From Candidatus Sulfotelmatobacter sp. (GTDB taxonomy: Bacteria > Verrucomicrobiota > Verrucomicrobiia > Limisphaerales > UBA11358): a stretch of DNA of 64,000 nucleotides. The stretch spans positions 3,755 to 67,754 of the forward strand of contig DATHOG010000003.1 of the NCBI GenBank assembly GCA_035485115.1, written 5' to 3'. A model generated the notes under the pieces. The model was not told where the DNA came from. It saw nothing but the letters and a program-made list of their open reading frames with translations, and did no database searches. This document shows positions 18,406-54,197 of the stretch, one piece after another (position 1 is the first letter of the stretch; each line of letters begins with the position of its first letter). The translations under genes and the position numbers were made by a program.

Positions 18406-18480
18406 TGGCAGGTGCCATCCTGGATGACGTGGGCCGGCACTTTTAGATTTGTATGGCTCTATGTGCCCGGGAGTTGTCTA

Positions 18481-19257: not shown

Positions 19258-19260
19258 ACC

Positions 19261-19740: not shown

Positions 19741-19761
19741 CCCGCCTGAGAATTTTGCGAA

Positions 19762-20502: not shown

Positions 20503-20512
20503 AAGATGGATA

Positions 20513-20639: not shown

Positions 20640-20746
20640 TATTTTCCTGGAATAGTGCGATGGTCCCGCATGCGGGACGGGTCTGCGGCACGGTTTTTCG
20701 GATAATTATGACAGCGTTGCGATTTTGTGAGAGGCGCGTGCTTCTA

Positions 20747-20936
20747 CTCGTGCCGGAGGCACAACCGGAAATTAGCCAGACACGTAAGTGTCTGGTATCG
20801 CGGAAAAGACAATCCGTCCTGAAAGGACGGTGGAAAGATGGAACATTTACCGGCGTCCCTTCAGGACGCAACTTTGTGGGTGCGGCCACCAGACACTACG
20901 TGTCTGGCTAATTTCCGTTGTCGCTCCGCGACCAAA
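20747..20936 (-). mobile_element. MITE-like palindromic element, copy A (inverted relative to copy B at 25861-26065)
   Basis: Terminal inverted repeats are GGAAATTAGCCAGACAC-NNNN-GTGTCTGG (20767-20795) and CCAGACAC-NNNN-GTGTCTGGCTAATTTCC (20889-20916). There are inner GTCCTGA..GGAC hairpins. The outer flanks match copy B in reverse orientation. Confidence 0.7.
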
Positions 20937-20994
20937 CACGGCGTGGCGCTTCGCTTCACACCATGGAATAAACGGACGCCGGTTTCACCAAGCT

Positions 20995-30089: not shown

Positions 30090-31307
30090 ATGGCATTGAT
30101 TGTTCAAAAATATGGCGGCACGTCGGTCGGCAACACCGACCGCATCAAGAATGTGGCCCGGCGCGTGGCGGAATACCGCAAGCGCGGGGACCAGGTGGTG
30201 GTGGTGGTGTCGGCAATGAGCGGGGTGACGGACGGCTTGATCAAGCTGGCGAAGGACCTCGCCCCGTTGCCGAGCGAACGCGAGATGGACATGCTGCTGG
30301 CCACGGGCGAACAGCAGACCATTGCGTTGACGGCGATCGCCCTGCACCAAATTGACGTGCCGGCAGTCTCGATGACCGGCGCGCAGGCGGGCATCGTGAC
30401 GGACGGCGTCCATACGAAGGCCAAGATCCATAATATCACGCCGAAGCAGGTCCATGAACAATTGGACGCGGGCAAGGTGGTGATCGTCGCCGGTTTCCAA
30501 GGCGAGACGAGCGCGGGCCAGATCACGACGCTGGGGCGTGGCGGTTCGGATTTGACGGCGATCGCGCTGGCGGCGGCGTTAAAGGCAGACCTGTGCCAGA
30601 TTTACACGGACGTGGACGGCGTTTATACGACGGACCCGCGGATCGTGCCGAACGCCAAAAAATTGCAAGAGATCTCCTATGACGAGATGCTGGAACTCGC
30701 CAGCCTCGGGGCGAAGGTGATGCAAAGCCGGTCGGTGGAATTCGCCAAAAAATTTGGCGTCGTGTTTGAAGTCCGCAGCAGTTTAAATGACAACCCCGGA
30801 ACGATTGTGAAAGAAGAAACGAAAAGCATGGAAGGCGTGGTCGTGCGCGGTGTCGCGCTCGACAAAAATCAGGCGAAGGTCACGCTCGTGGGCGTGCCGG
30901 ACAAACCCGGGGTGGCCGCGAAAATTTTCAAGGCGCTCGGCGATGCGACCGTGAACGTGGACATGATCATCCAGAACATCAGCCACGGCACCGGCACGCC
31001 GGCGACGGACATCTCCTTTACCGCTGACAAGCCGGACCTGCTGAAGGCGCAAAAGGTGATCGAAGGCCTGCAGAAGGAAATCGGCTACAAGCAGGTGATC
31101 ACGGCCGAAAAAATCGGGAAACTTTCGATTGTCGGCGTGGGCATGAAATCGCACACTGGCGTGGCGGGCAAGCTGTTTGAAACGCTCGCGAACGAAGGCG
31201 TGAACATCGACATGATCTCGACCAGCGAAATAAAAATTTCCGTCGTCATTGACCTCGCAAAAGGCGAGCAGGCGGTGAAAGCCGTCCATGCGGCCTTCAT
31301 CGGATGA
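30090..31307 (+). CDS. lysC: Aspartate kinase
   Basis: [15 protein letters not shown]-terminus, 405 aa, two C-terminal ACT-like regions. Confidence 0.93.
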
Positions 31308-31326
31308 TGCACTTTTTCAGAAAACC

Positions 31327-35364: not shown

Positions 35365-35408
35365 GATTTTACGCTGTTAATTTTGGCCGGCAACACGCCG
35401 GCCGTTTT

Positions 35409-35471
35409 GCGTAGGAGTCATCAGCGCTGAACATCAGGCGGTTTTCCATGCGGATGGCAGACTCCATTGCC
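35409..35471 (-). promoter_or_regulatory. Fluoride riboswitch (crcB RNA motif)
   Basis: Minus-strand RNA is GGCAAUGGAGUCUGCCAUCCGCAUGGAAAACCGCCUGAUGUUCAGCGCUGAUGACUCCUACGC. It has the conserved GGnnAUGGnGUnCnCC, AAACCGCC and GCUGAUGAnnCCUAC elements, and the pseudoknot pairing GGAGUC / GACUCC. It lies 44 nt upstream of crcB. Confidence 0.85.
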
Positions 35472-35569
35472 AAAAAATGTTTAACAATTTCCACGTTAAA
35501 TGGCAACGCTTTCTTGACTAGCCCGCCGGCCAAATTAACATGAGGGTTCGTTACTTTCGTAAAATCTAA

Positions 35570-36871
<1,302 letters not shown>

Positions 36872-36885
36872 TGCGTTCATAATTC

Positions 36886-39235: not shown

Positions 39236-39488
39236 GACCGTGAAAATACGTTCCGGTTCCTTTCAAACAAGAACATTTGCATGAAAAAATCGTCATCTTG
39301 GGTGCAAAAATGAAATGGATTAAATACGGTCATTGTAAAACATCACCGTCCCGAAACGAGAAAGCCATCGGCCATCGCGTCGAGGGTGATGATTTTTGCG
39401 GCTCGACAGGTTTTAGTTGTCGCAGTATGAATGTCTTCATGATGTCTGTTTTTGTCTGTTTATGCAGGGCGTGACCATTGACGAACCC

Positions 39489-39902
39489 ATGAAAATTCCC
39501 GGTCTCAGACCTTCCGCCGCGCAACTTGGCGGCCTCGTTTTCTTCGGGCGGATGCTTGACAAGATTCGATTGCACGCACAAGGCAGGCTCCCGGTCGATT
39601 ACAATCGTGGCACTGGTTTCGATGGCCGGGTTTGCCGGTTTTTACACGTCGAATATCCCTCGCTCGTTGAACGTGTCCTGGCCGGCGTCAGCGACGAGGA
39701 GATTTTGACTTGGTGTTTCGCCCATGGACGGAAACCGGGCGACGAGGAGATTTTTATCTTCAATTCGTTTCTCACCAAGCGCGGCTGGCACGATGACGGC
39801 AGCGCGGAGCTGGAGACCATGAAGCGCAACCGTGGTTTTGCCAACCGCGCGGACATCCAGACATTTTTCGATTTTCACAAGGCAGATGAGGAACTAGATT
39901 GA
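39489..39902 (+). CDS. DUF5069 domain protein
   Basis: Start at ATG 39489 (MKIPGLRPS). LGGLVFFGRMLDKIRLHAQGRLP is the typical DUF5069 N-terminal block. Confidence 0.65.
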   Translation: MKIPGLRPSAAQLGGLVFFGRMLDKIRLHAQGRLPVDYNRGTGFDGRVCRFLHVEYPSLVERVLAGVSDEEILTWCFAHGRKPGDEEIFIFNSFLTKRGWHDDGSAELETMKRNRGFANRADIQTFFDFHKADEELD

Positions 39903-39978: not shown

Positions 39979-40812
39979 TTACTCCCCAATCTTTTCAACC
40001 TTCACCGTTACCTCCATCGTCCGCTCCGTCGTTCCCTTGTAGGTCCCGCAAATCGGCGGCACATCGGCATAGTCGCGACCGACGGCGATCTTCACATAAG
40101 TCTCGTCCGGCTTGCAATTGTGTGTCGGGTCCAGCGGTTGCCAGCCTTGTCCGGGGATGAATACCTCCGTCCACGCGTGCGTTGCGCTGGCGATCTCCGT
40201 CGCAAGATAACCGCTGACATAGACCGCGGGAATTTTTAGCGAACGACACAGGCTCAACATCACATGCGCGAAGTCCTGGCAGACCCCCCGCTGTTGCGCG
40301 AGCGCATCCCGCGCATGCGTGTGGACCTGCGTCGAACGGCTTTCGTAGGCGATATGCGAATGGACGAACGCCATCAGTTTCAAAGTCTGCTGCCAGACGT
40401 CCCGTTCGTCGCCGATGGCATCCACCGCCAGCCGCCAGATTTCCGGCGTCGTCTCCACGAAACGGCTCTCATGCAAAAAATCAAAGGCGCGCCCAAAGGA
40501 CAGCGCCTCCGGCAGGCGCTCGACACCGGCGGGCCGCGCATCCATGGGCAGTCCGTCAATCTTGTGCGTGGTCACGCGCAAGTTGCTCTCCACCGTCAGC
40601 GTGGAATGCGCCTCGGGCAGTTCAAAATAGTGGACCACGTTGCTGTTGAAATCGTGGTAATGCTTCAACCGGGTGACCGGTACAACCTTGATGAGAAACG
40701 AATCCACCGTCTGCTGCTTGTTGGAAAGCGGCTGTAAATGCAGCTCGTTCCGGCTCTCGCGCACCGGTGCGGCGTAGGCGTAATGCGTGCGATGTAGAAT
40801 GTCCCACTTCAT
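39979..40812 (-). CDS. Transglutaminase-like cysteine peptidase-fold protein (Bact_transglu_N + TGc)
   Basis: RGVCQDFAHVMLSLCRSL (catalytic Cys) and THAWTEVFIPGQGWQPLDPT (His, Asp). Confidence 0.85.
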   Translation of the reverse strand: MKWDILHRTHYAYAAPVRESRNELHLQPLSNKQQTVDSFLIKVVPVTRLKHYHDFNSNVVHYFELPEAHSTLTVESNLRVTTHKIDGLPMDARPAGVERLPEALSFGRAFDFLHESRFVETTPEIWRLAVDAIGDERDVWQQTLKLMAFVHSHIAYESRSTQVHTHARDALAQQRGVCQDFAHVMLSLCRSLKIPAVYVSGYLATEIASATHAWTEVFIPGQGWQPLDPTHNCKPDETYVKIAVGRDYADVPPICGTYKGTTERTMEVTVKVEKIGE

Positions 40813-40813
40813 T

Positions 40814-41689
40814 TTATTCCAGGGGTTCCACGTCCACCGAAACCCTCAACTGATGCGCGCCGCCGCCCGTGATGATGCCCGCGACCGGGCTGACGTCCGA
40901 GAAGTCACGACCGAACGCAACCGTGATATGTTCCTCGCCCGGACGCACGTTATTTGTCGGGTCAAAATCAACCCAGCCCGTGCCCGGGCAAAAAATTGAA
41001 AACCACGCATGGCTCGCATCCGCGCCCACCAGCCGCGGTTTGCCCTCCGGCGGACGCGTGCGCAGGTAGCCGCTGACGTAACGCGCCGGCAAACCCAGCG
41101 AACGCAGGCAGGCGATGCCCAGATGCGCGAAGTCCTGGCACACCCCGCGGCGTTTTTCCAAAACCTCCTCCAACGGCGTCGCCACGGTCGTCGCCTTCGG
41201 GTCATATTTGAAATCTTCAAAGATCCGCCGCGTCAGATCCGCCGCGCCGATGAGAAGCGGCGTGCCGGTCTTAAAACTTTCCGCCGCATAATCCGCCAGT
41301 TCCCGGGACGCGCGGATGTGTGGCGAATCAAAGACGAATTGATACGCCTCCACCACCTCCGGCGACACCGGATCGCGAAACATCTTCGCGACGTCCTCCC
41401 ACGCGATCGGGTTTTCCGGCGCGGCCGGCTTGCGCGCGGCCACCGTCACGCGGCTGTGGGTGATGATCTCCAGCTTGTTGTGGATTTCCTGGATGGCGAA
41501 CACGCAAAGCCGGTTACCGAAATAATCCGTGCGCGTCTTGCTCAAGGCCGGTTCCGGAAAAATCTTCAATGTGAATTTTTCGCATGACTGCCCCGCCAGC
41601 AGACGCGGTTCCAGACGCGTGACATGGTGCGACACCGTCACCGGCGCGGCGTATTCGTACAACGTGCGATGGGTGATGAGGTAATTCAT
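40814..41689 (-). CDS. Transglutaminase-like protein (Bact_transglu_N + TGc), second paralogue
   Basis: Start at ATG 41689 (MNYLITHRTLYEY) overlaps the upstream stop as ATGA. RGVCQDFAHLGIACLRSL and SHAWFSIFCPGTGWVDFDPT. Confidence 0.85.
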   Translation of the reverse strand: MNYLITHRTLYEYAAPVTVSHHVTRLEPRLLAGQSCEKFTLKIFPEPALSKTRTDYFGNRLCVFAIQEIHNKLEIITHSRVTVAARKPAAPENPIAWEDVAKMFRDPVSPEVVEAYQFVFDSPHIRASRELADYAAESFKTGTPLLIGAADLTRRIFEDFKYDPKATTVATPLEEVLEKRRGVCQDFAHLGIACLRSLGLPARYVSGYLRTRPPEGKPRLVGADASHAWFSIFCPGTGWVDFDPTNNVRPGEEHITVAFGRDFSDVSPVAGIITGGGAHQLRVSVDVEPLE

Positions 41690-44367
41690 TCTTCCGCCCC
41701 CCGTCCGGTTCTCGAAATGGACGAATGCGCAAAATAACTCGCTGCGATCGCGTCCGAAAGCTTGGGTAGCGTCGCCAGCGTCTCGCGGATCACCGCGGCG
41801 ACGTTGCTCTTCGCCCACGAACCGTTTTCCGCGAGCTCGCGCGCATCCGCTTTGCTCAACTGCGCCACGCATTTTTGCAGGATGTTTTTGCCCGATCCGG
41901 CGGCCTCCTCGCGTTCCTTCGGCAGCTTGTCGAAATGTTTGGCGAGCTGGTTGATTTGAAACAGCACCGAGCGCGGATTTTTGTCGTCCAGCAGCACCAG
42001 GTCAAAAACCGCCGGCACGCTCGCCAGCAGGCTGTAACGCGAACGGAACGTGATGCTGCTGTCCACGACTTCGAGCACGGCCTCGAGCATGCTGGGGTTT
42101 TCCGGGTCCGGTGAGCGCAACGTGGCGTCGAGCAGGGTGCCGATGTAGATCGCGCGCTCGATGCGCAGGCCCATGTCCAGAAAACGCCACGCCTGCGCGC
42201 GGGTCATGTTTTCACGCGCGAGACCATGGAACGCCGCGAGACCCATGAGTGTTTCGTTCAACACCACGGCCGCCTCGCCCGCCAGCATCACGGAATGTAA
42301 CCGTGAAACCGTTTTGTCAAAAGTGGTGGTGTCATCTTCAGCGTTCGATGAGGTTTTTGGCAAACTTGGCCGCGCCGCCTCGTCGCTGCCGCCGAGCCGG
42401 TCATTGAGCTGGCTCAAGACGCGCCACATGTCGTTCGAGGTGCGGTCGCGCACGAGCGTTGCGAGCCGTTGCAATTGGTCGGCGGTGTTGCGCAAACTGC
42501 CGGCGCGCTCCGGATCAAAGATCGCCGCGAGCAGTTCCGCTTCGAACGCCTCGGCATTCTGGCGGAGCTCCGGTTTCGCGGAGATGCCCGGCAGTTGCCC
42601 CTGCGTTTCGAGCGTTTGCAACAATGGCGCGACCAGCGTTTGCGCGCCACCGGCGCGTTCGGGGTTGAAACGCAACAGCGCGCTGCGCAACAACCGCGCC
42701 GTGGCGTCCGCGCGTTCAGAATAACGGCCCAGCCAGAAAAAATTGTCCGCCAGGCGCGATGGCAGATTGTTTCCCGTGCGGCGCAGCTCGATGTTTTGCG
42801 TGCCGCCGTGCAGCAACGTGAATTCCTCCACCGGCGTTTCCGAAATGATCCAGGTGTCCTTGCTGCTGCCGCCGCTCTGCATGGAAATGAATTTCCCGCC
42901 CGTGTCCGGCGCGACACGTGTGAGCCCGCCGGGCATCACGCGGTAGCCATTTTCGGTGGCCACGAGAAACGCGCGCAGCCCGACCGGCTTCGCGACCAGG
43001 CCGTCCTTTTCCAACGACGGCGCAGTGGAAAGGGCGACCCGTTCCTGCGCCACGAACAGGTCCGGGTCGAATTCAATCTGCCGTTTCAGCGCCGCCAGTT
43101 CGGCCTCGCTCAATTTTTTTTCCGGATCGGGCATCCGCAAATGCGAGCGGAACGCCGGTTTGACGACGAGTTCATCCAGCCGTTCAAAAACATGTTCGCG
43201 CGCCTTCTTCTGTCCGCACCACCAGGTCGCGACCGACGGCAGCTTCAATTCCTCGCCCAGGATATGCCGGCACAACCCGGGCAGAAACGACATGAATGCG
43301 GGGCTTTGCACCAGACCCGAGCCGAGCGCATTGGCGATGACGACATTCCCCGCGCGGACAGCCTCGACCAGGCCCGGCACACCGAGGATCGAGTCATTGC
43401 GCAATTCCAGCGGGTCGCAAAAATCATCGTCCACGCGGCGTAAAATCACATCCACCCGTTCGAGTCCGGAAAGGGTCTTGAGGAAGACATGGTTGTCACG
43501 CACAGACAGATCCTGACCCTCCACCAGCATGTAGCCGAGGTAACGTGCCAGATATGCCTGCTCAAAATACGTCTCGTTGTGCGGGCCTGGTGTGAGCATC
43601 ACCACGCGCGATTTCTCCAACGGCCGCGGGGCGATTTGCGCCAGGGCGTTCTGTACGTCGCGAAAAAATCCCGCGAGCCGGTTAATGTTATTGTCGCGGA
43701 ACGATTCGGAAAAAATGCGCGAAGTCACCAGCCGGTTCGCCAGCGCGTAGCCCGCACCGGTCGGGATCTGTGTACGATCGGAAACCACCCACCAGCGCCC
43801 GTCAGGCGAACGTGCGAGGTCGGCGGCGTAAAAATTCAGGAAGACGTCGTTCGGAATCTTGATTCCGTGGCAGGGACGCAGGAAGTCCGGCTGCGCAAAG
43901 ACCAGCGCGGGCGAAAGCCAGCGCGTGTGAAGCAGTTTTTGTTCGCCGTAACTGTCGGCCAGAATCTTGTTCAGCAACGTTGCGCGCTGGATGAGTCCCT
44001 TTTCGAGCGTATTCCACTCGTTGGGCGAAATGACCAGCGGCACCGGGTCCAGTTGCCACGGACGTTCGACGCCGCGAGGATCGCTGTACACGTGATAAGT
44101 GATGCCTTGCTCGTGGACGAGGCGGTCACTGGCGTCCGCGCGGCGGTGCAATTCCGCCATGCCCAGTTCATCCATGGTGCTGAGAATCTTCGCGTAATGT
44201 GCCCGCGGTTTGCCATCGGCGGCGATGAACTCATCAAAAGACGATTCGCGCCGCTGATAATTTTTCAGCAGCGCGGCGGGGGACGGTTTAGGCTCGACGG
44301 ACGTCTCGTTCATCGCGTCACGTGACTGTAACATTGCCTGTCGTTGCTTGCGAGCTTCTTCAGACAT
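41686..44367 (-). CDS. Fusion of a circularly permuted type-2 ATP-grasp domain and an alpha-E domain
   Basis: At 893 aa, the N-terminal ~500 aa is collinear with the stand-alone ATP-grasp at 48934-50409 (for example VMLTPGPHNETYFEQAYLARYLG vs [23 protein letters not shown]). The C-terminal part carries FFWLGRYSERA, like the stand-alone alpha-E LFWMSRYVERA. Confidence 0.85.
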   Translation of the reverse strand: MSEEARKQRQAMLQSRDAMNETSVEPKPSPAALLKNYQRRESSFDEFIAADGKPRAHYAKILSTMDELGMAELHRRADASDRLVHEQGITYHVYSDPRGVERPWQLDPVPLVISPNEWNTLEKGLIQRATLLNKILADSYGEQKLLHTRWLSPALVFAQPDFLRPCHGIKIPNDVFLNFYAADLARSPDGRWWVVSDRTQIPTGAGYALANRLVTSRIFSESFRDNNINRLAGFFRDVQNALAQIAPRPLEKSRVVMLTPGPHNETYFEQAYLARYLGYMLVEGQDLSVRDNHVFLKTLSGLERVDVILRRVDDDFCDPLELRNDSILGVPGLVEAVRAGNVVIANALGSGLVQSPAFMSFLPGLCRHILGEELKLPSVATWWCGQKKAREHVFERLDELVVKPAFRSHLRMPDPEKKLSEAELAALKRQIEFDPDLFVAQERVALSTAPSLEKDGLVAKPVGLRAFLVATENGYRVMPGGLTRVAPDTGGKFISMQSGGSSKDTWIISETPVEEFTLLHGGTQNIELRRTGNNLPSRLADNFFWLGRYSERADATARLLRSALLRFNPERAGGAQTLVAPLLQTLETQGQLPGISAKPELRQNAEAFEAELLAAIFDPERAGSLRNTADQLQRLATLVRDRTSNDMWRVLSQLNDRLGGSDEAARPSLPKTSSNAEDDTTTFDKTVSRLHSVMLAGEAAVVLNETLMGLAAFHGLARENMTRAQAWRFLDMGLRIERAIYIGTLLDATLRSPDPENPSMLEAVLEVVDSSITFRSRYSLLASVPAVFDLVLLDDKNPRSVLFQINQLAKHFDKLPKEREEAAGSGKNILQKCVAQLSKADARELAENGSWAKSNVAAVIRETLATLPKLSDAIAASYFAHSSISRTGRGAEE

Positions 44368-47300
44368 TTCTCAAGTCGAGCGTGAACGGAAATTCCGGAT
44401 TTATCTTTGCGGGTGCGACCGTACATTTTCCCTGTGAATGACCATTACGGAAGAAACGGGAAAGGCGGCGCGACTCGGCCTCGTAGGAATTCACCGGAAA
44501 CGTGTCATAACTTCTGCCGCCCGGATGCGCCACATGATAGGTGCAGCCACCCAGGCTGCGACCGTTCCACGTGTCCACCACATCGAATACCAGCGGCGCC
44601 TGGATGCCGATGGTCGGCTGCAAACATTCGGGCGGATGCCACGCGCGATACCGGACGCCCGCCACAAATTCGCCGTTCGTGCCGGTCGGATGCAGCGGAA
44701 TACGATGGCCACCGACGGTGACCGCAAAGCGGTCGCTCGTGAGCCCCTGGGCCTTGATCTGGAGCCGTTCCACCGAGCTGTCCACGTAACGCACCGTGCT
44801 TCCGCCGCCCGGCTCCTCGCCGAGGACGTGCCACGGTTCGAGCGCCGTGCGGAGTTCGAGCTGGAGGTCGCGTTGCGTCAAGTCGCCAATGAACGGGAAA
44901 CGGAACTCGAAATGCGGCGCGAACCAGTCGAATTCAAACGGATAACCGGCATCGCGCAGATCGCGGATTACATCCTTGAAATTCGTCTCGCAGAAATGCG
45001 GCAGCATCCAGCGGTCGTGGATATCCGTGCCCCAGCGTACGAGGTTGTTCTGGTATGGCTCCTTCCAAAATTTGGAGACCAGGCCGCGTAGCAACAAATG
45101 TTGGGCCAGGCTCATGCGCGAGTGCGGCGGCATTTCAAACGCGCGCATTTCGACCAGCCCCAGCCGGCCGGTGCTGCTCTCCGGGGCATAGAGTTTATCA
45201 ATCGAAAACTCGGACCGATGCGTGTTGCCGCTGGAATCAATCAACAGGTTGCGGAACAAACGGTCGCACAGCCACGGCGGCGTATAGCCTAAATTTTTGG
45301 TGTTGCGTTCCAGTTCCTTGAACGCGACTTCCAGTTCGTAAAGCGAATCGTTGCGCGCCTCGTCAATGCGCGGCGCCTGCGACGTCGGCCCGATGAACAG
45401 GCCGCTGAACAGCCAGCTCAACGACGGATGATTTTGCCAGTAGGAGAGCAAGGAACGCAGCAGATCGGGCCGCCGCAAAACCGGCGAGTCCTGCGGCGTC
45501 TCGCCGCCGATGATGATGTGATTGCCGCCGCCCGTGCCGGTGTGCCGGCCATCCAGCATGAATTTTTCCGTGCCAAGGCGGGTGAGGTGCGCCTCTTCGT
45601 AAAGCACCGTCGTCCGTTCAACGAGTTCATCCCAGGACTTGCTGGGGTGCAGGTTCACCTCGATGACGCCGGGGTCCGGCGTGACGGCCAGCTTGTTGAT
45701 GCGCGGATCGCGCGGCGGGGTTTCACCCTCGATGATGACCGGCGTACCCATTTCGGTGACGGCGGTCTCGATGCCGGCGATGAGATCCAAATAATCCTCC
45801 GTCGTCTCCACCGGCGGCATGAACACATGCAACCGCCCTTCGCGCGGTTCCACGCACAAGGCGGTGCGGATGATCCACGGCGCGCTCTGGCCTTGGGCCG
45901 GACGACGATTCGGATCGTAATCCGTTGCTGGCGGCAACGGCGGCAGTTCCACGCGTCTTTCCTCTTCCACATTGCCCAGCCGTTGGGCGCGCTGGCCCGG
46001 ACCGTAGCCGGCGGGCACCGGTGCGCCGCCTTTGCGCCGGATAAAATGCTGGCCGGAGCTTTCCGGATTGCGAGGCTGGTATGGAAACTCCTTCGGCAAT
46101 TCAGGCAGATTTGGATTCGACGGGTCTTCCTGGTGAATCCACGGAAATTCTTTCTCCGCGACCCACGGGATGGAATCAAGCGGCAGGCGCAGGCCCATCG
46201 CAGAATCACCCGGGATGAGCCAGAGCGTGTCGTCATCGCGCAAAAACCACGCGCCGGACATCCACCCGGCCTGGTTGCCATACTGCGCGCGTTTTATCGG
46301 CAGCGTATAACCGACGGCTTCGCCCGGACCTTCTTGAAAAATCCGCGTAATCCGGTCGCGTTCCAGTTTATTTTTGAGATTGGTTTTTTCCGGCGTGACG
46401 TTGGACGGCAGACGGCGTTCCTTCCAGGTGTAATAAAACGCGTCTTCATAGCCGGGCATCATGTATTTCGGATCCGCGCCGATCACGCGGGAAATCCGTT
46501 CCAGCAACGCCTTCGCATCCTTCGCGGCGTGACCATAGTCCTTCGATTCATCGGCGATGAGCGAATCGTCCTTCCAGATCGGCACGCCGTCCTTGCGCCA
46601 GTAACATCCGAGCGCCCAGCGCGGCAGTTGTTCGCCGGGATACCATTTGCCCTGGCCGTAATGCAATAGCGAGCCGGGTGCAAATTTGCTGCGCAGGCGC
46701 TTGATAAGGTTACCGGAAAGTACGCGCTTTTCGTGCGAGGCGGCGGTGAAATTCCATTCCGGACCATCCCGATCGTCCACGGAGACAAACGTCGGCTCGC
46801 CACCCATCGTCAGGCGCACGTCACCGCGTTTTAAATCGGCATCGATCGCATGGCCGAGCGACTCGATTTTGTTCCATTGCGCGTCGGTGTAGGGCAGGGT
46901 GACCCGCGGCGATTCGTGGATGCGCGTGACGCGCATTTCGTGCGCGAATTCACATTCGCACTCGTCCACCAGACCGTTGATGGGCGCGGCACCCGTAGGA
47001 TCGGGCGCGCAAGCCAGCGGAATGTGGCCCTCACCGGCAAACAGGCCGGAGGTCGGGTCCAGCCCGATCCAGCCCGCGCCGGGCAGATAAACTTCCGTCC
47101 ATGCATGCAGATCGGTGAAATCTTTTTCCGCACCGCTCGGCCCATCCAGCGATTTCACGTCGGGTTTGAGCTGGATCAGATAACCGCTGACGAACCGCGA
47201 CGCGAGACCACAATGCCGGAGCACCTGGCAAAACAGCCACGCGGAATCGCGGCAGGAACCGTTGCCCTTTTCCAGGGATTCCTCCGGCGTCTGCACGCCG

Positions 47301-47851
47301 GGCTCCATGCGGATGGTGTATTTGATGTCCCGCCAGATCTTCTGGTTAATGGCGACGAGAAAATCGATCGTGCGCGGCTTCTTTTCAAATGGAACTTCCT
47401 GCCGCTGGCTGTTGGTGAGCCTTTTCGTCTCGCCGAGGATCTCCTTGCGGACGGCGGCGAGGTATTTCATGAACTGCGGCGTCAGCCAGCATTTTTTTTG
47501 GAAGGGCGCGAGTTCATGTTTGAGCGCCGGGTCGTATTCGAACGGATAACGCTCCGCGTCCGGTTCGAGGAAAAAGTCAAACGGGTTCAGCACCGACATT
47601 TCGGCGACCAGATCGACCTCGACGATAAATTCCCGGGTCTGGTCGGGAAACGTCAGCCGCGCCAGATAATTCGACTGCGGGTCCTGCTGCCAGTTGATGA
47701 AGTGTTTTTCCGGCGTGATTTTGAGCGAATAGGAGAGGATGCGCGTCCGCGAATGTGGCGCGGGCCGCAGCCGCACAGTTTGCGGGCCCAGCGTGATTAG
47801 ACGGTCATACTTGTATTGCGTCTTATGATGCAGCGCGACTTGAATTGACAT
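44360..47851 (-). CDS. Large transglutaminase-family protein (Bact_transglu_N + TGc + DUF2126 putative amidoligase region)
   Basis: 1163 aa. GSCRDSAWLFCQVLRHCGL (Cys) and DLHAWTEVYLPGAGWIGLDPT (His, Asp), followed by a long C-terminal extension typical of DUF2126 proteins. Confidence 0.8.
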   Translation of the reverse strand: MSIQVALHHKTQYKYDRLITLGPQTVRLRPAPHSRTRILSYSLKITPEKHFINWQQDPQSNYLARLTFPDQTREFIVEVDLVAEMSVLNPFDFFLEPDAERYPFEYDPALKHELAPFQKKCWLTPQFMKYLAAVRKEILGETKRLTNSQRQEVPFEKKPRTIDFLVAINQKIWRDIKYTIRMEPGVQTPEESLEKGNGSCRDSAWLFCQVLRHCGLASRFVSGYLIQLKPDVKSLDGPSGAEKDFTDLHAWTEVYLPGAGWIGLDPTSGLFAGEGHIPLACAPDPTGAAPINGLVDECECEFAHEMRVTRIHESPRVTLPYTDAQWNKIESLGHAIDADLKRGDVRLTMGGEPTFVSVDDRDGPEWNFTAASHEKRVLSGNLIKRLRSKFAPGSLLHYGQGKWYPGEQLPRWALGCYWRKDGVPIWKDDSLIADESKDYGHAAKDAKALLERISRVIGADPKYMMPGYEDAFYYTWKERRLPSNVTPEKTNLKNKLERDRITRIFQEGPGEAVGYTLPIKRAQYGNQAGWMSGAWFLRDDDTLWLIPGDSAMGLRLPLDSIPWVAEKEFPWIHQEDPSNPNLPELPKEFPYQPRNPESSGQHFIRRKGGAPVPAGYGPGQRAQRLGNVEEERRVELPPLPPATDYDPNRRPAQGQSAPWIIRTALCVEPREGRLHVFMPPVETTEDYLDLIAGIETAVTEMGTPVIIEGETPPRDPRINKLAVTPDPGVIEVNLHPSKSWDELVERTTVLYEEAHLTRLGTEKFMLDGRHTGTGGGNHIIIGGETPQDSPVLRRPDLLRSLLSYWQNHPSLSWLFSGLFIGPTSQAPRIDEARNDSLYELEVAFKELERNTKNLGYTPPWLCDRLFRNLLIDSSGNTHRSEFSIDKLYAPESSTGRLGLVEMRAFEMPPHSRMSLAQHLLLRGLVSKFWKEPYQNNLVRWGTDIHDRWMLPHFCETNFKDVIRDLRDAGYPFEFDWFAPHFEFRFPFIGDLTQRDLQLELRTALEPWHVLGEEPGGGSTVRYVDSSVERLQIKAQGLTSDRFAVTVGGHRIPLHPTGTNGEFVAGVRYRAWHPPECLQPTIGIQAPLVFDVVDTWNGRSLGGCTYHVAHPGGRSYDTFPVNSYEAESRRLSRFFRNGHSQGKCTVAPAKINPEFPFTLDLRNV

Positions 47852-47854
47852 CGT

Positions 47855-48904
47855 TCAGGGGTGGGTGACAAGCGTTGACGGGCGTAGTGACTGCTGCTGT
47901 TGTTCCTCCTGCTGGACGAACTGCACCTCGCTGTCGAGGTCGAACGACTGGAAAATGTAGGCATTGAACAGCGCCTCGCCGACACTGTTCAATTTCAACT
48001 GGACCTGGTCCAGGTAGCCATGCAGGCCGATTTCAAAAACCTCCTCAATGGTGATGAATTGCAATTCGGCCGCGAGCCGGCCGCAAAGTTTTTCGGCATC
48101 GTTGCCAAAGCGGTTCACCGGCACGCCGGAGATATGGCGTAACGACTCGTTCAGGCGCTCGACACAGAAGCGGATGGAGCGGGGAAAATCCTCGTTGAGC
48201 AGGAGAAACTGCGCGACGTTATAGGGGTTGACCTCCGCGCCGTAAATCGCCTTGAAGACATCCCACGCGCTGCAGGAGCGCAGCACGGCGGACCATTCCA
48301 GCGCATCGGTCTGGCTGACGGATTTCGGCAGGCCGCGTTCGGGCAGCGTGTGATGCCGCAGGTCGAGGATGCGCGAGGTCTTGTCGGCGCGTTCCATGAA
48401 ACGGCCGGCCTCGCTGAACCACCAGCCTTCGTTGTGGCTGTGCGTCGCATAGCTCAAGCCGAGCAGTTGGATTGAACTCGCCTTGACCTGGTTAAAAAAA
48501 TCCGTCGGGCTTTCCGTCCAGACAATGCGTGCCTCGGGTGAGAGGATAAACAGATAAAGGCGGTTCAATTCCTCCCACGTTTCAATGGTGATCTGGTCGC
48601 GGATCATCCGGGCGTTTTCCCGCGCGGAACAAATCGAAGAGACGATCGAATTCGAGTTATCCTGGTTGAACACCATGAAGTCCGCCACCGCCGAGGCCGT
48701 GGCCTGGTTGTGCTGCTTGGCGAATGATTCCTCGTCGCCGGTGGTCTGGACGATGGGCATCCAGTGTTTGCGCAGCGTCTCGTCGTCAAGGCTGCGGTAA
48801 TCAAGCAGGAGCTGGAGGTTCACATCGAGCAGGCGCGCGACGTTTTCGGCGCGCTCGACATAGCGCGACATCCAGAACAGGGAATTGGCAACGCGGGAAA
48901 GCAT
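47855..48904 (-). CDS. Alpha-E domain protein
   Basis: MLSRVANSLFWMSRYVERAENVARLLDV is the canonical alpha-E N-terminus; 349 aa. Confidence 0.85.
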   Translation of the reverse strand: MLSRVANSLFWMSRYVERAENVARLLDVNLQLLLDYRSLDDETLRKHWMPIVQTTGDEESFAKQHNQATASAVADFMVFNQDNSNSIVSSICSARENARMIRDQITIETWEELNRLYLFILSPEARIVWTESPTDFFNQVKASSIQLLGLSYATHSHNEGWWFSEAGRFMERADKTSRILDLRHHTLPERGLPKSVSQTDALEWSAVLRSCSAWDVFKAIYGAEVNPYNVAQFLLLNEDFPRSIRFCVERLNESLRHISGVPVNRFGNDAEKLCGRLAAELQFITIEEVFEIGLHGYLDQVQLKLNSVGEALFNAYIFQSFDLDSEVQFVQQEEQQQQSLRPSTLVTHP

Positions 48905-48933
48905 TTATGATTAATGATGGGTGATTGGTGATT

Positions 48934-50409
48934 TCACTTATCGCCGTACAATACCCAGGTATCCTTGCTGCCGCCGCCCTGGGATGAATTGACCACCAGG
49001 GATCCTTTGCGCAACGCGACGCGCGTCAGGCCGCCGGGAATGATGACCGTCTTTTCGCCGCACAAAATGAACGGACGCAAATCCACATGGCGCCCTTCGA
49101 AACCCTCCTCGCCGCAATACGTTGGATGCGTGGAAAGCGAAATCATGGGCTGGGCGATGTAATTGCGCGGATCGGCGATGATCAGCTGGCGGAATTTTTC
49201 GATTTCTTCCTTCGTCGCCTTCGGCCCCATCAACATGCCGTAGCCGCCGGATTCGTTCGCGGCCTTCACCACGAGCTTGCCGAGGTTTTCCAGCATGTAT
49301 TTTTTGTCCGCTTCCTCGCTGGCGAGATACGTCGGCACATTTGGCAGGATTGGCTCCTGATCCAGGTAATACTTGATCATGCGCGGGACGAAGTAATACA
49401 TCACCTTGTCGTCGGCGATGCCTGTGCCGATGGAATTGGCCAGCGAGACGTTGCCCGCGCGATACGCCCGCACCAGTCCCGGCACGCCGAGCATTGAATC
49501 ACGGCGGAAAACAGTCGGGTCGAGAAAATCATCATCGATGCGGCGATAAATCACATGGACAGGCTTCAAGCCCTTGGTCGTGCGCATGAAGACATGCTCT
49601 TCACGCACCACCAGGTCGCGGCCTTCAACGATTTCTATGCCCATCTGCCGCGCAAGATAGGTGTGCTCAAAGTAAGCGGAGTTGTACGCGCCCGGCGTGA
49701 GCAATGCAATGGTCGGTTCGGCAACACCGGCGGGCGCGATGTGCTGCAATGCCTTCAATAGTTCCTGCGGATAATGTTCGACCGGGCGCACGCCGGTTTT
49801 TTCAAAGACATTGCGAAACGTGCGCTTCATCGCCCGGCGGTTTTCCAGGACGTAGCTCACGCCGCTCGGGCACCGGCCGTTGTCCTCGAGCACCATGTAA
49901 TTGCCCTTGTCGTCGCGGATGAGGTCCGTTCCGCAGACATGGATGTAGATGTCCTTCGGCACGGCGAAGTTCACAAACTCGCGCCGGAAATGTTTTCCCG
50001 AGAGGACGTAGTGCGCGGGAATCGTGCCGTCATTGAGGATGCGCTGCTCGTGGTAGATGTCGTGCAGGAAAAGATTCAGCGCCGTCACGCGCTGGGTGAG
50101 GCCGCGCTCAATGGTTTCCCATTCGGCGGCGGGGATGATGCGCGGCACCATGTCGAACGGAAACACGCGCTCCGTTCCGCGCGAGTCGCCATAGACGTTG
50201 AAGGTCACGCCCTGCCGCAAAAACGCGAGGTCCACGGCGTTGCGTTTGGATTGATATTCGTTGCTGGAGATCTGGCAGAACGCCTTGTGGACTTTGTCGT
50301 AATGCTTCAGCGGCACGCCCTCGCGCCCGAACATTTCGTCGAAAAATCCCTGACGATCGCCGCCGCAAAGGTTGAGGCTTGCCAGTTCCGTTTTAGCCAC
50401 GCCGGTCAT
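48934..50409 (-). CDS. Circularly permuted type-2 ATP-grasp protein
   Basis: 491 aa. Blocks [20 protein letters not shown] and GGYGMLMGP...IAQP, with the C-terminal [13 protein letters not shown] typical of this family. Confidence 0.85.
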
Positions 50410-50545
50410 TTTGGTTCAGAGTTGTCGTTTCTATTGCGCGCCAATCCTGTATAAAAACAGTCATTGGCGGCGCACACAGCATTTAAGCAGCGGTTGTGCC
50501 AGTACCGGGCAAAGAAATCATTCGTTGCCAAAATGACCCGAAAAA

Positions 50546-51919
50546 TCAGGCGTGTCTTTGGATCAAATACGCCTTGAACTTCTCGTAGTCCGCGCCCATC
50601 CGGTCGAAATCTTCCGGCAATTTCAAGGACGCGAGCATGTTCGCCGGCACGTCCGGTTCCCAGCCGACCACCTTTTGCACTTCGCCGGGAAATTTCGCCG
50701 GGTTCGCGGTCTCCACGATGACCGCCGGGGTGTTGCCCAGCGGTTCCTGCGCGGTCCAGTCCAGCAATCCCTGCCACGCCACGGAACCATGCGGTTCGAG
50801 CAGCAGTTGGAACTGGTTCCAGAAATCCCGGATGCCCGCGACGGTGCGTTCGTCGGAAATGGACGAGGAAAAAATGTCGCGCCGCATCGCCTCGATGTTC
50901 GGCTGGATCAGGATTTTACCCGTCTCATCCATCTGGCCGCCGTAAACCGAGACCAGCCGCGCCAAGTTGCTCGGATGGCCGACGTTCATCGCGTTGGACA
51001 ACGAATTGCGCGATGGCGAAATTTTTTGATAATCACCGCTTCCGAGAAATTTCGGGAAGGCGTCATTGGCGTTCACCGCCGCGACAATTTTTCTCACCGG
51101 CAAACCCATCTCGCGCGCCACAATCGCGCCCATCATGTCGCCGAAGTTGCCGCTCGGCACGGAAAACACCACCGGCTCCCCTGCCTGCGCCACCCGTGAT
51201 GCGGCATAGAAATAATAAACGCTCTGCGGCAACAGGCGTCCGATGTTGATGGAGTTAGCGGACGATAGCGGGATGTGGTTCAGGTCCGCGTCGGCGAACG
51301 CGCGTTTCACCATCGCCTGGCAGTCGTCAAACTTGCCGTCGATGGCCACGGTGCGGATGTTGTCCTTGAGCGTGGTCATCAGTTTACGCTGGCTCTCGCT
51401 CACTTCCGCGAGGGGAAACAGCACGATGACCCGCACGCCGGGAATTTTATGGAACGCATGGGCGACCGCCGAACCGGTGTCGCCGCTGGTCGCGGTGAGG
51501 ATCGTGACCTGCCGGTTGTCTTCGCGCAAAAATTTGCCGAACAATCGCGCCATCATCTGCGCGGCAAAATCCTTGAACGACGCCGTCGGGCCCTGGTCCA
51601 GGCGCATCAGGAACGTGCGGAAGTTCACGACCTCCAGCGGCACGGGAAAGTTGTACGCCTCGGCGCAAAACTTCGCGAGTTCCGCCGGCGGCACGATGCC
51701 CTCGGTGAACTTGGACAGCACCCGGAACGCGATCTCGTGATACGGCAGGCGGGAGAACGCCGCGAGTTCGTTGAACGTGAAGCGCGGAAATTGTTTCGGA
51801 AAATACAGGCCGCGATCCGGTGCCTGGCCTTGTAACAACGCCTCGCGCAGATTGACGGCGGGCGACTGGCCGTTCGTGGAATGAAATTGAATCTGGGACA
51901 TCTTACTTGAAATTTTCAA
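50546..51919 (-). CDS. thrC: Threonine synthase
   Basis: PLP-lysine block GPTASFKDFAAQ and TATSGDTGSA; 457 aa. Overlaps the hom 3' end by 17 nt. Confidence 0.9.
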   Translation of the reverse strand: MKISSKMSQIQFHSTNGQSPAVNLREALLQGQAPDRGLYFPKQFPRFTFNELAAFSRLPYHEIAFRVLSKFTEGIVPPAELAKFCAEAYNFPVPLEVVNFRTFLMRLDQGPTASFKDFAAQMMARLFGKFLREDNRQVTILTATSGDTGSAVAHAFHKIPGVRVIVLFPLAEVSESQRKLMTTLKDNIRTVAIDGKFDDCQAMVKRAFADADLNHIPLSSANSINIGRLLPQSVYYFYAASRVAQAGEPVVFSVPSGNFGDMMGAIVAREMGLPVRKIVAAVNANDAFPKFLGSGDYQKISPSRNSLSNAMNVGHPSNLARLVSVYGGQMDETGKILIQPNIEAMRRDIFSSSISDERTVAGIRDFWNQFQLLLEPHGSVAWQGLLDWTAQEPLGNTPAVIVETANPAKFPGEVQKVVGWEPDVPANMLASLKLPEDFDRMGADYEKFKAYLIQRHA

Positions 51920-53207
51920 CGCGGAACATGACCGGTTGGCCTTTGACGGCGGGCAATTTGGCGATCTGGCCGAGTGCGCGTTTCACCGCGCCGTTCGTCG
52001 CATAGTGCAGCATGAAGATCAGCGGCACGCTGGCGCCTTCGTGGCCTTCCGGCTGGATGACGGACGATATGCCGATGTGGGACTGGCCGAAAATGGTCGC
52101 AATCCTCGCGAGCACGCCGGGCTTGTCCACCACGTTGAGGCGGACGAAATATTGCGAGACAACTTCATCGATCGGCGCGACACAGCCGGCACATTCGTGC
52201 GGCACGAAGGCGGGCAGTCGGTTCTTCGCGCCGCTTTTCAGATCGAGCACCGCATCGCCGATGTCGCTCAAGACCGCACTGGCCGTGGCGTCCTTGCCCG
52301 CGCCGCGACCGTAAAATAGCGAATCGCCCACGACATCACCGCGCACGAATACGGCATTGAACACGCCGTTCACGCTGGCCAGCACGTGCGAATTTGGCAC
52401 GAGGGTCGGATAAACAGAAACTTGGATGCGCCCGTTGCCCTCCAGTTTTTTCACCGTGCCAAGCAGCTTGATGGTGTAACCAAGTTCACCGGCAAATTTG
52501 ATGTCCAGCGCGGAAACCGGGCGGATGCCTTCGACGTGGATTTTCTTCGGATTGACCCAGAAACCATGCGCGAGCGACGCGAGGATGCCGGTCTTGTGCG
52601 CGGCATCGTGGCCATCGATGTCCAGGTCGGGCGGCGTTTCGGCATAACCGAGTTTCTGCGCGTCCGCGAGCACTTCGTCGAGATCCGCGCCTTCCAGCTT
52701 CATCCGTGTGAGGATGTAATTGCAGGTGCCGTTGACGATTCCGTAAAGCGCATTGATGCGGTTGCCGACAAAACCTTCGCGCAACGCCTTGATGATGGGA
52801 ATGCCACCGCAGACGCTCGCCTCGTAATAAAGATTGGTGCCGTATTTTTGCGCGGCGGCGAAAAGTTCCTCGCCATGGGCGGAGAGCAACGCCTTGTTCG
52901 CCGTGATGACCGGCTTGCCGAGCTTCAGCGCGGCCAGGATCGCCTCGCGCGCCACGCCCGTGCCGCCGATGAGCTCGGCGACGACCTGGATGTGGGGATC
53001 AAAAACCACTTCGCGCCAGTCGGTCGTCAGCAATTTGGCGGGAATCTTCGTGGCCCGTTTCTTTTTCAAATCGCGCACGGCGACGCGTTCGATGGATACG
53101 CGGGTGCCCAGGCGCGAGGCCACCAGCGAACCGTTGCGCTGGAGCGCTTCGTAAACGCCGCTGCCGACCGTGCCGCCGCCGATGATGCCGAGTTTGACCT
53201 GCTGCAT
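51903..53207 (-). CDS. hom: Homoserine dehydrogenase with a C-terminal ACT domain
   Basis: Start at ATG 53207 (MQQVKLGIIGGGTVGSGV). NAD-binding N-terminus and ITANKALLS block. The upstream 84 codons of the ORF lie in intergenic repeat sequence. Confidence 0.9.
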   Translation of the reverse strand: MQQVKLGIIGGGTVGSGVYEALQRNGSLVASRLGTRVSIERVAVRDLKKKRATKIPAKLLTTDWREVVFDPHIQVVAELIGGTGVAREAILAALKLGKPVITANKALLSAHGEELFAAAQKYGTNLYYEASVCGGIPIIKALREGFVGNRINALYGIVNGTCNYILTRMKLEGADLDEVLADAQKLGYAETPPDLDIDGHDAAHKTGILASLAHGFWVNPKKIHVEGIRPVSALDIKFAGELGYTIKLLGTVKKLEGNGRIQVSVYPTLVPNSHVLASVNGVFNAVFVRGDVVGDSLFYGRGAGKDATASAVLSDIGDAVLDLKSGAKNRLPAFVPHECAGCVAPIDEVVSQYFVRLNVVDKPGVLARIATIFGQSHIGISSVIQPEGHEGASVPLIFMLHYATNGAVKRALGQIAKLPAVKGQPVMFRVENFK

Positions 53208-53436
53208 AGTTACACCGGCAGGTTGCCGTGAAAAAGAGCAGGGGACAATCCAATTTTGGTTCCGCGACGTTTTCAGTGGGCAACTGGATTTGACGTTTCC
53301 ATGGCAGGCAAGGGGACAATTCTCCCCATCATATTCCGCCGTCGCCGATCTGAATTGAAAATCCGCGCCAAGCGGGCAGGGCGGAGAGTCTATGCTGACG
53401 AGATGGCGGAGATGGCTCGCGGTTGTTTGGATGGCC

Positions 53437-53655
53437 GATGGGTAATCGCCAATAGGCAATAGGTAATCGCCGATGGCAAATCGCCGATAGCCGAGTCAAT
53501 CGCCAATCGCCAAGTCAGCAATCAAACCGGATGAGCATCACGCGTTGGTTATGGATTTTGGCGCGGATGATTTCCCGCGCCAGTTGCAATCGCATAGCCG
53601 ATGGGCAATTGCCGATAGATAATCGCCAATAGGTAATCGCCAATCGCCGATTGGC
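53437..53655. repeat. Arrays of degenerate ATCGCC[AG]AT[AG]G units (downstream flank of the four-helix-bundle gene)
   Basis: Two clusters (about 53437-53525 and 53590-53655), each with 5 or more units such as TAATCGCCAATAGG, AATCGCCGATGG and AATCGCCAATCGCC. Confidence 0.7.
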
Positions 53656-54197
53656 TATTCTTCGTCCGGCTTCAATTCGCCACGGGCGATGCGGGCTTCG
53701 GTTGATTTATAAAGCGGATGTTCCGGCTTCAAGTTGCGCAAAAAGATCAGGCGAAAATCTTTGGCCTTCTGCGCGGACTCACGTCTTTCCTTTACCTCGC
53801 CGGTCAGGTACCGCTTGCCTTGCACGGGCGAACTGTCAATGGATGCGGTCCACGCTGTCAATTGCCGGGCACAGGACTCGGCCATCGCGCGAATTTCCTG
53901 CAAGTGCCGCACAATGGGTTTGAGTTTTGGCCGGTCCTTGACCACGGCCATCATGGAACGCACCTCGCCCGCGCTGCCGCGTGCGATGGCGAGAAACATG
54001 TTAAGTTCATTCGTCGTCACGCGCTCGAATCCTTCCGCGATGTTGTTTGAGACGGAGAGCGCGGCGCGATCCAATTGATTGCGGAAGCCTGGCGTGAGCG
54101 GCACGTTTGGCCCTTCCAGCAGGTCAAGCACGCGGTTGTAGAGCCGCGCCGCCTCCTGCCACACCGGCAGCTCTTCAAACTTTTGATACTTCGCCAT
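53655..54197 (-). CDS. Four-helix-bundle protein (23S rRNA intervening-sequence protein / Avd-like family)
   Basis: LPVWQEAARLYNRVLDL...RNQLDRAALSVSNNIAEGFER...FLAIARGSAGEVRS is the hallmark pattern of this family. Confidence 0.85.
   Translation of the reverse strand: MAKYQKFEELPVWQEAARLYNRVLDLLEGPNVPLTPGFRNQLDRAALSVSNNIAEGFERVTTNELNMFLAIARGSAGEVRSMMAVVKDRPKLKPIVRHLQEIRAMAESCARQLTAWTASIDSSPVQGKRYLTGEVKERRESAQKAKDFRLIFLRNLKPEHPLYKSTEARIARGELKPDEE

Follow-up and report, generated by a model that had tools for sequence, protein, structure and literature searches.

A six-gene verrucomicrobial cluster joining split and fused circularly permuted ATP-grasp, alpha-E and transglutaminase modules

Gene content and domain architecture

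The stretch of DNA analyzed here (the window; 64,000 nucleotides of contig DATHOG010000003.1 from Candidatus Sulfotelmatobacter sp., Verrucomicrobiota) carries six consecutive minus-strand genes in the open reading frame (ORF) list, G1, E1, TD, GE, T2 and T3, from position 50409 to 39979 (Table 1). Pfam matches for all six proteins identify them as the circularly permuted ATP-grasp / alpha-E / transglutaminase (TGase) system and, judged by domains and gene order, the cluster is a verrucomicrobial member that joins two bioinformatically known neighbourhoods, namely the COG2308/COG2307/COG1305(/Anbu) set and the Rv2566-type cluster. The preliminary description of this DNA had proposed a six-gene operon of the same system; its gene lengths and junctions match the ORF coordinates exactly, and its domain assignments (ATP-grasp, alpha-E, TGase and DUF2126) are all supported by the Pfam hidden Markov models. 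The Cys-His-Asp triad that it reported for all three TGase domains was also recovered by a motif scan, which found G-x-C-[RQ]-D and HAW...D-P-T in each of them as well as W-x-x-R-Y-x-E-R-A in both alpha-E domains.

Table 1. Coordinates of the cluster genes, the promoter-like box, adjacent genes and Anbu-like ORFs of comparative loci (L numbers)
Feature	Position	Strand	Basis or context
G1, stand-alone circularly permuted ATP-grasp ligase, 491 aa	48934..50409	-	Pfam CP_ATPgrasp_2, E 6.7e-166, full-length
E1, stand-alone alpha-E, 349 aa, Gln/Glu-rich C-terminal tail VQQEEQQQQ	47855..48904	-	Pfam Alpha-E, E 2.7e-95
TD, TGase-DUF2126 protein, 1163 aa	44360..47851	-	ORF list
TD N-terminal part, aa 1-295, Bact_transglu_N and TGase core, Cys200/His249/Asp265	46967..47851	-	Pfam, motifs
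TD C-terminal part, aa 296-1163, DUF2126, probable glutamine-synthetase-like carboxylate-amine ligase	44360..46966	-	Pfam DUF2126
GE, ATP-grasp (~aa 1-525) fused to alpha-E (~aa 535-893), 893 aa	41686..44367	-	Pfam
T2, small TGase-like protein of the 'T_a' type, 291 aa	40814..41689	-	Pfam Bact_transglu_N and Transglut_core, triad motifs
T3, small TGase-like protein of the 'T_b' type, 277 aa	39979..40812	-	Pfam Bact_transglu_N and Transglut_core, triad motifs
Sigma-54-type -24/-12 promoter-like box TGGCACaaccgCTGC	50487..50501	-	One mismatch to TGGCAC-N5-TTGC
thrC, threonine synthase	50546-51919	-	5' of G1, 136-nt gap to G1
hom, homoserine dehydrogenase	51903-53459	-	5' of thrC
DUF5069 gene, convergent	39417-39902		3' of T3, gap ~76 nt
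Anbu-like ORF	L079:9152-9886		Between alpha-E and TD (G - alpha-E - Anbu-like - TD)
Anbu-like ORF	L077:9032-9757	-	Just upstream of TD
Anbu-like ORF	L074:19444-20145		After G-E
Anbu-like ORF	L044:19819-20520	-	After T_a

In gene order the junctions measure +29, +3, -8, -4 (ATGA) and +1 nt, the fourth value applying to the 291-aa start of T2. This start, an ATG at 41689, is favoured over that of the 352-aa maximal ORF (40814-41872) because the Bact_transglu_N match opens at residue 3 and because the closest relative has an independent 289-aa gene call. A single transcript would fit junctions of -8 to +29 nt that hold no promoter-like site, and the six genes are presumably co-transcribed. Hydrophobic segments and signal-like N-termini are absent from all six proteins, which places the system in the cytoplasm.

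G1 matched CP_ATPgrasp_2 and CP_ATPgrasp_1, and GE matched both CP_ATPgrasp_2 (E 9.5e-153) and Alpha-E (E 1.3e-67); the structure 3N6X was matched by both ATP-grasp copies, at E 2.4e-176 for G1 and 9.5e-88 for GE. The ER motif lies at residue 11 of E1 (WMSRYVERA) and at residue 545 of GE. The fusion of alpha-E to the ligase in GE argues, as a Rosetta-stone argument, that the G and E proteins act together. The paralogues within the window appear to be old, since identity is 37% between G1 and GE, 22% between E1 and GE, and 32% between T2 and T3.

Structure prediction for alpha-E with AlphaFold2, based on 66 sequences, gave a confident all-helical model (predicted local distance difference test score, pLDDT, 86.3; predicted template modelling score, pTM, 0.77), for which no fold relative was found in the PDB, the best structural match reaching E 0.3 and a TM score of 0.24. 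A weak match to the response-regulator chains 8TED/8P6F (E 0.018) was judged to be due to chance. Many charged residues are invariant in the 66 sequences and fall into three ER-type motifs, E17-R18, R95-E96 and E171-R172-x-D-K. Moreover, stand-alone alpha-E proteins end in a low-confidence tail of 15-35 residues in which, in many lineages, a basic stretch is followed by a Gln-rich one (for example KRxxQSQTQTQ, QSQTQTQ, QKQKQE and QQQQQ), with a Gln content of 11.7% as compared to 4.1% in the body. In E1 the tail is encoded by the C-terminal ~30 codons (47855-47950), and no such tail was found in the fused GE proteins. As a lead only, the tail is a possible substrate of the TGases or ligases.

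The largest protein, TD, matched PF08379, PF01841 and PF09899, with DUF2126 covered from position 1 to 826 of 826 (1310 bits, E 0); its N-terminal motifs are GSCRDS and HAW...DPT. The TGase is fused to DUF2126 in 240 of the 240 TD homologues listed, and TD is strongly constrained, as can be seen from 55-60% identity across phyla over ~1100 aa. The residues C200, H249 and D265 are invariant in 65 homologues and so are many charged residues of DUF2126. The family comprises 2,871 clusters at 50% identity (E<=1e-30); among the homologues at 80-89% identity those named are from Verrucomicrobiota or Limisphaerales, and an exact look-up returned no record identical to the TD sequence.

Searches of the PDB with the single sequence and with a 31-sequence profile found no relative of DUF2126 beyond the TGase part. 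An AlphaFold2 model of TD from a 65-sequence alignment, which is of moderate confidence (mean pLDDT 69.9, pTM 0.66), was compared with the PDB by Foldseek: the top matches were TGase folds (3ISR, E 4e-10; TgpA, 6G49, E 2e-4), followed by about 30 chains of the glutamine synthetase family with a few TGase-fold chains (9CRN, TG2) interspersed. The matches to the glutamine synthetase family are weak (E 0.02-0.5, probability <=0.96, ~280-300 aligned columns, TM 0.25-0.30) and include the gamma-glutamyl-amine synthetases GmaS (9QUR), naphthylamine glutamine synthetase (8X6Z) and 4HPP. Profile searches had placed the Rv2566 family in the carboxylate-amine ligase/glutamine synthetase superfamily (PMC2588565). 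This weak but consistent fold evidence suggests that DUF2126 is probably a third ligase, of the glutamine synthetase type, and since DUF2126 is itself predicted to be a ligase, the operon most likely has three ligases and the two counted in the preliminary description are probably too few. The invariant motifs GGEPTF, GVIEVN, GGGNHI, SQAPRxDEARND and VE(M/L)RAFE follow an order that may be that of the metal, ATP and phosphate motifs of glutamine synthetase. When the loci and the window were scanned for a bona fide glutamine synthetase to be used in a profile-profile comparison, no protein with the PROSITE ATP signature was found.

Two further features of TD were observed. A Pro/Gly-rich stretch of ~50 residues at ~595-646 (45914-46069), with pLDDT <50, no conserved columns and a length that varies among homologues, interrupts DUF2126 between two regions of high conservation and probably represents a flexible linker, or else an insertion, in the ligase domain. 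Additionally, many relatives of 750-850 aa match only residues ~650-1162 and a shorter N-terminal part; these may be DUF2126 variants that lack the TGase or the first half, or alternatively fragments.

Occurrence of the two-module layout

The distribution of the layout was assessed by scanning one genome per GTDB species with TD, which gave at least 599 matches, of which the best 80 loci were kept; ORFs were called per locus and assigned by BLASTP to the window domains, and the sample is biased to TD proteins that share at least 55% identity with the query. For 53 loci (the full-flank set), the sequence around TD extended over at least 3 kb on the upstream and at least 4 kb on the downstream side. 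Both modules lie on one strand in 25 of these 53. Both junctions are tight in 14 of them, with the stand-alone G-E pair directly upstream and GE directly downstream of TD (L011, L019, L027, L029, L031, L035, L036, L037, L039, L050, L058, L063, L069 and L078), and 11 carry inserted genes (L005-L010, L017, L021, L022, L044 and L059). Another order or orientation of the two modules was seen in three loci (L070, L074 and L080). The remaining loci contain TD-GE-T only (17/53, including Pseudomonas L025 and L048), TD with stand-alone G/E only (7/53; L004, L062, L067, L073, L075, L077 and L079) or TD alone (1/53; L064). In 45 of the 53 loci, TD and the fusion gene are no more than 10 kb apart.

The 14 tight loci are from Verrucomicrobiota, Dechloromonas (Betaproteobacteria), Acidobacteriota, Desulfobacterota, Planctomycetota and delta-type metagenome-assembled genomes, and the gene order G-E-TD-GE-T is found in at least five phyla. 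It was confirmed for two further loci (L083 and L084) by independent gene calls from metagenomes, annotated with precomputed Pfam matches, and, in the closest relative (L081/L082; TD 89% identical), independent gene calls gave the same order hom-thrC-G-E-TD-GE-T-T as in the window. The two-module arrangement is thus the commonest in the sample, widespread, conserved and by no means particular to this genome. In the preliminary description, the joining of split and fused versions was implied to be peculiar, an implication that is not supported by the inspection of gene neighbourhoods proposed there as a check, as the joining of the two modules proved to be common. The window itself adds nothing unusual and represents an ordinary, correctly annotated instance of an interesting unsolved system, and the five-gene unit G-E-TD-GE-T is a natural object for experiment.

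A fixed boundary between a split and a fused module, as drawn previously, did not hold up either. TD follows the stand-alone G-E pair with no fusion gene in L075 and L079, precedes it in L077 and is divergent from it in L062, L067 and L073; because TD pairs with either the stand-alone or the fused ligase, the boundary is looser. The five-gene form may be read as two full G+E+T sets, the first with a TGase that carries DUF2126 and the second with G and E fused, and the window would then hold two such sets and one extra TGase.

The two small TGases differ in their distribution. Where the downstream flank is long enough, most loci have an orthologue of T_a (42-78% identity) 3' of the fusion gene. 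T_b is an extra paralogue of mostly verrucomicrobial loci that was found after T_a in L002, L005-L009, L017, L021, L022 and L081, directly after TD in L004, and as a single copy of 34% identity in L070. As to whether T3 might be the displaced TGase of the G-E-T triad, the triad-adjacent TGases of L070, L044 and L067 do not discriminate, with equal scores against T2 and T3.

Anbu-like genes abut the cluster in four loci (Table 1). The 244-aa ORF (MTYCVA...) has sub-threshold matches to Proteasome (PF00227) and TIGR03634 and, in L079, TD occupies the slot of the small TGase of the classical Anbu operon. The presence of these peptidase-like genes next to the cluster points to peptide or protein substrates. 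In the 64-kb window a tblastn search with the Anbu-like protein of L079 found no such ORF, in agreement with the earlier statement that an Anbu-type subunit is missing here.

At the junction between alpha-E and TD, which is 3 nt in the window, the sister Verrucomicrobia L004, L005, L006, L008, L009 and L015 carry same-strand genes of central metabolism (at ~6.3-10.0 kb of these loci). The inserted genes encode a 1138-aa pyrophosphate (PPi)-dependent phosphoenolpyruvate (PEP) carboxykinase (PDB 6K31/8E1U, E 0; no match in the current Pfam scan), a phosphofructokinase (L006:5126-6517) and, in L022, PEP carboxylase (L022:7241-9988). In L084, which is of a different lineage, the gene for the PPi-dependent PEP carboxykinase directly follows the last TGase gene (17807-20987). 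The recurring link to the PEP/oxaloacetate node may be functional or may reflect synteny alone.

Relation to known systems, regulation and possible chemistry

The COG2308-COG2307-COG1305(/Anbu) neighbourhood was described by Valas & Bourne 2008 (PMC3235984) and by Iyer et al. 2009, the latter as cited in PMC3495828 and PMC5666114. The window resembles this set in that G1, E1 and a TGase-fold gene form the COG2308-COG2307-COG1305 triad, in that neither the catalytic triad nor the ER motif is disrupted and the proteins are cytoplasmic, and in that a ligase and a tag-reversing peptidase are predicted. It differs by the absence of Anbu, which is frequent and not obligatory in the set (the genome beyond the window was unseen), by a 1163-aa TGase-DUF2126 protein instead of a small TGase in the slot after alpha-E, and by the additional fused ligase/alpha-E copy and two further TGases. 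The second neighbourhood is represented in Mycobacterium tuberculosis by Rv2566, Rv2567 and Rv2569c, presumably arranged in this order as TGase-ligase, ATP-grasp::alpha-E fusion and small TGase; the stand-alone set in the Rv2411c region lies apart from this cluster. TD, GE and T2 of the window have the same domain architectures and order, and the three-gene unit TD-GE-T stands alone in 17 of the 53 full-flank loci, Pseudomonas included. By contrast, the unit in the window is joined head-to-tail with the stand-alone G-E pair and an extra TGase.

The family to which the cluster belongs is large and unusually conserved, and is present in pathogens (Mycobacterium, Pseudomonas) as well as in environmental phyla. 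Its product has remained unassigned seventeen years after the first bioinformatic description. The searchable literature up to 2026 yielded predictions and one negative assay, consistent with the product having been called undefined, and no functional study of DUF2126 or of these ATP-grasp families was found in it. The only experimental mention found is that Rv2411c and Rv2567 do not make gamma-aminobutyric acid (GABA)-trehalose. A report on a TGase of extracellular vesicles concerns a different protein, an unrelated membrane TGase. Five of the six proteins are without a model in NCBIfam release 20, and the sixth gave a far-sub-threshold match to an unrelated TGase lipoprotein family; PADLOC matched none of the six, and their solved relatives in the PDB are structural-genomics entries only.

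The sigma-54-type box TGGCACaaccgCTGC ends 77 nt upstream of the ATG of G1, in the 136-nt gap between thrC and G1, where it is the sole match on this strand. The chance of such a box in this gap on the right strand is ~0.007 as estimated from the shuffle rate, and the motif is not rare in the whole window (5 matches vs 6.6 expected). In L081 the box reads TGGCATaggcgTTGC, with GG and TGC kept and a different spacer, and the remaining gap is 91% identical. A survey of 250 nt upstream of cluster-leading genes with fixed GG/GC, covering 102 regions, detected boxes with at most one mismatch in 9 regions (0.7 expected) and with at most two mismatches in 26 (6.9 expected), all of them upstream of G or TD; perfect boxes precede the first gene by ~50 nt in Pseudomonas L025 and L070. 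No consensus sigma-70 site and no junction terminator were found, the terminator scan showing no excess. The operon is probably sigma-54-dependent as judged from the promoter region, and a nitrogen-limitation signal may be envisaged: the enrichment of boxes fits the published induction of the Pseudomonas Anbu operon under nitrogen limitation, which is given for P. putida PP_2685 to PP_2688 in Table 2 of PMC8050072 and in PMC5666114 citing Hervas 2008. There, PP_2688 (circularly permuted ATP-grasp) and PP_2685 (Anbu) were 16- to 22-fold up with nitrate as compared to ammonium (PMC8050072 Table 2). Moreover, a correlation of the domains with urea genes was seen in marine metagenomes (PMC3597751). 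Two papers on the NtrC regulon do not mention these genes.

Taken together, we favour, with a probability of roughly 0.4, the reading that the cluster is a chromosomal, cytoplasmic and probably sigma-54-dependent operon that makes and trims ATP-dependent amide bonds. Three ligases, i.e., the split pair G1+E1, the fused pair GE and the glutamine-synthetase-like DUF2126, would convert carboxylates to acyl-phosphates and join these to amines as amides, adding amino-acid or short-peptide units, probably of the gamma-glutamyl type, to a cellular peptide or protein. The three TGase-fold Cys-His-Asp enzymes (the TD N-terminus, T2 and T3) would hydrolyze or transfer these linkages via an acyl-enzyme intermediate, and the system would be switched on by nutrient limitation, probably that of nitrogen. 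We infer every chemical step as well as the substrate, the latter being taken for a peptide or protein because of the Anbu neighbours, the alpha-E tails and a published prediction of peptide tags that are reversed by transglutaminase-like (TGL) peptidases (PMC3495828). A multi-step pathway is a reasonable inference.

Several observations weigh against this reading. No biochemical datum was found for any family member, and co-expression of Anbu with its operon partners did not yield a new form (PMC5666114). The glutamine-synthetase-like fold match is weak (E 0.02-0.5, TM ~0.25-0.30) and derives from a model with pLDDT of ~70. No sigma-54 activator (Sigma54_activat domain) was detected among the window ORFs scanned, transcription may possibly read through from thrC, and the nitrogen-limitation data stem from a different cluster type, the Anbu operon, of a distant organism. 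Furthermore, neither a Pup-like small ORF nor any other gene for a substrate lies within or beside the operon, as had been stated before for obvious substrate genes: a small ORF would not fit into the junctions, and the flanking gaps of 136 and ~76 nt were read, where ORFs <100 aa were not scanned.

The last observation favours the main rival explanation, a small-molecule pathway, which we regard as possible although rather unlikely and rate close to the making and trimming of amide bonds on a peptide or protein. DUF2126 and ATP-grasp would act one after the other, in the manner of gamma-glutamylcysteine ligase and glutathione synthetase, and yield a glutathione-like gamma-glutamyl peptide or a gamma-glutamyl-amine; the TGase-fold enzymes would act as amidases or transpeptidases, comparable to the CHAP amidase of glutathionylspermidine synthetase/amidase, or alternatively as hydrolases as in gamma-glutamylation routes that use amines as nitrogen source. 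The same was proposed for the Rv2566 family on the ground that it has no Pup-like ORF in its vicinity (PMC2588565). The gamma-glutamyl-amine synthetases (9QUR, 8X6Z, 4HPP) among the glutamine synthetase family matches closest to the TD model are in line with it, and both the nitrogen-limitation induction and the urea-gene correlation (PMC3597751) would fit nitrogen scavenging. The likeness extends to the synthesis of glutathione and glutathionylspermidine (GshA of the carboxylate-amine ligase superfamily; GshB or GspS, of ATP-grasp type; the Cys-His enzyme Gsp amidase), where two ligase folds are likewise combined with a thiol amidase, and the closest solved relative of G1, 3N6X, was deposited as 'putative glutathionylspermidine synthase'. 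However, this label is an unverified structural-genomics name, and alpha-E and the protein sizes are without counterpart there. Very large conserved proteins and a dedicated, non-enzymatic-looking alpha-E would be unusual for a simple metabolite route, some loci have Anbu-type proteasome-like neighbours, and no conserved transporter or tailoring genes were found alongside. The negative result for Rv2411c and Rv2567 also speaks against it, narrowly, as GABA-trehalose is the sole metabolite tested.

It is improbable that the window holds two independent systems that are merely syntenic, G1-E1 (with T3 or TD) and TD-GE-T2, with unrelated substrates. The insertion of same-strand genes for phosphofructokinase, PPi-dependent PEP carboxykinase and PEP carboxylase between the two halves in sister Verrucomicrobia would be expected in that case, as would the 17 of 53 loci with TD-GE-T only, the 7 of 53 with TD and stand-alone G/E only, and the age of the paralogues (37%, 22% and 32% identity). 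Against this stand the recurrence of tight adjacency in 14 of 53 loci from at least five phyla, the 3-nt gap and the 8-nt overlap that flank TD in the window, and the fact that TD pairs with the stand-alone as well as the fused ligase, as would be expected of a shared function.

A more specific proposal, to which we give little credence, is that the stand-alone alpha-E protein may itself be the protein substrate or carrier of the system, with TD as a single-chain analogue of Dop plus PafA acting on its tail. TD would deamidate or activate residues of the tail and join them to amines, a reading suggested by the fact that TGase-fold enzymes act on Gln/Lys side chains and ligases on Glu carboxylates. 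If true, this would be a new Pup-independent protein conjugation, widespread in Gram-negative phyla and induced by nitrogen limitation. The system may resemble pupylation by PafA/Dop in having a ligase of the glutamine synthetase fold, which could activate the gamma-carboxylate of glutamate, and an enzyme that deamidates or cleaves at Gln/Glu, both of which TD would combine. It differs in that the window is without a Pup-like gene, 20S proteasome or AAA ATPase, and in that its hydrolase has the papain/TGase fold and not the glutamine synthetase fold. Neither a Pup-like modifier nor a proteasome or ATPase partner was found in the junctions or the window, as judged by junction sizes and the tblastn search with the Anbu query, and membership in pupylation is not claimed for the window operon.

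Finally, anti-phage defence or mobile-element cargo, raised because many uncharacterised multi-enzyme operons prove to be defence systems and favoured by no evidence that we found, is very improbable given that no PADLOC match was obtained, that the context is one of housekeeping genes (aspartokinase, aconitase, hom, thrC) with synteny kept in the closest relative and GC content continuous with the flanks, and that no integrase or repeat features were noticed among the ORFs scanned, no systematic search having been made.

Surroundings of the cluster

The rest of the window is ordinary chromosome, with genes for a sugar transporter, GH20, N-acetylglucosamine catabolism, aspartokinase, aconitase, GH2 and alginate lyase, and GC content is even throughout. 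A 180-aa ORF upstream of hom (53655-54197, minus strand) matches PF05635, the '23S rRNA intervening sequence protein' family (E 2.8e-19), and no rRNA gene was seen close to it in the window. Two ORFs of ~505 aa, at 28420-29946 (plus strand) and 35369-36880 (minus strand), had no Pfam match at the thresholds used; the latter overlaps a 430-aa ORF on the opposite strand, which makes the coding strand there ambiguous. Genes of the aspartate family and the tricarboxylic acid cycle flank the cluster on both sides (30090-34137; 50546-53459). The linkage to hom-thrC is common only to the closest relative (L081/L082) and was not seen in the other 80 loci, and the aspartokinase gene (30090-31307) overlaps the start of the aconitase gene (31288-34137) by 20 nt.

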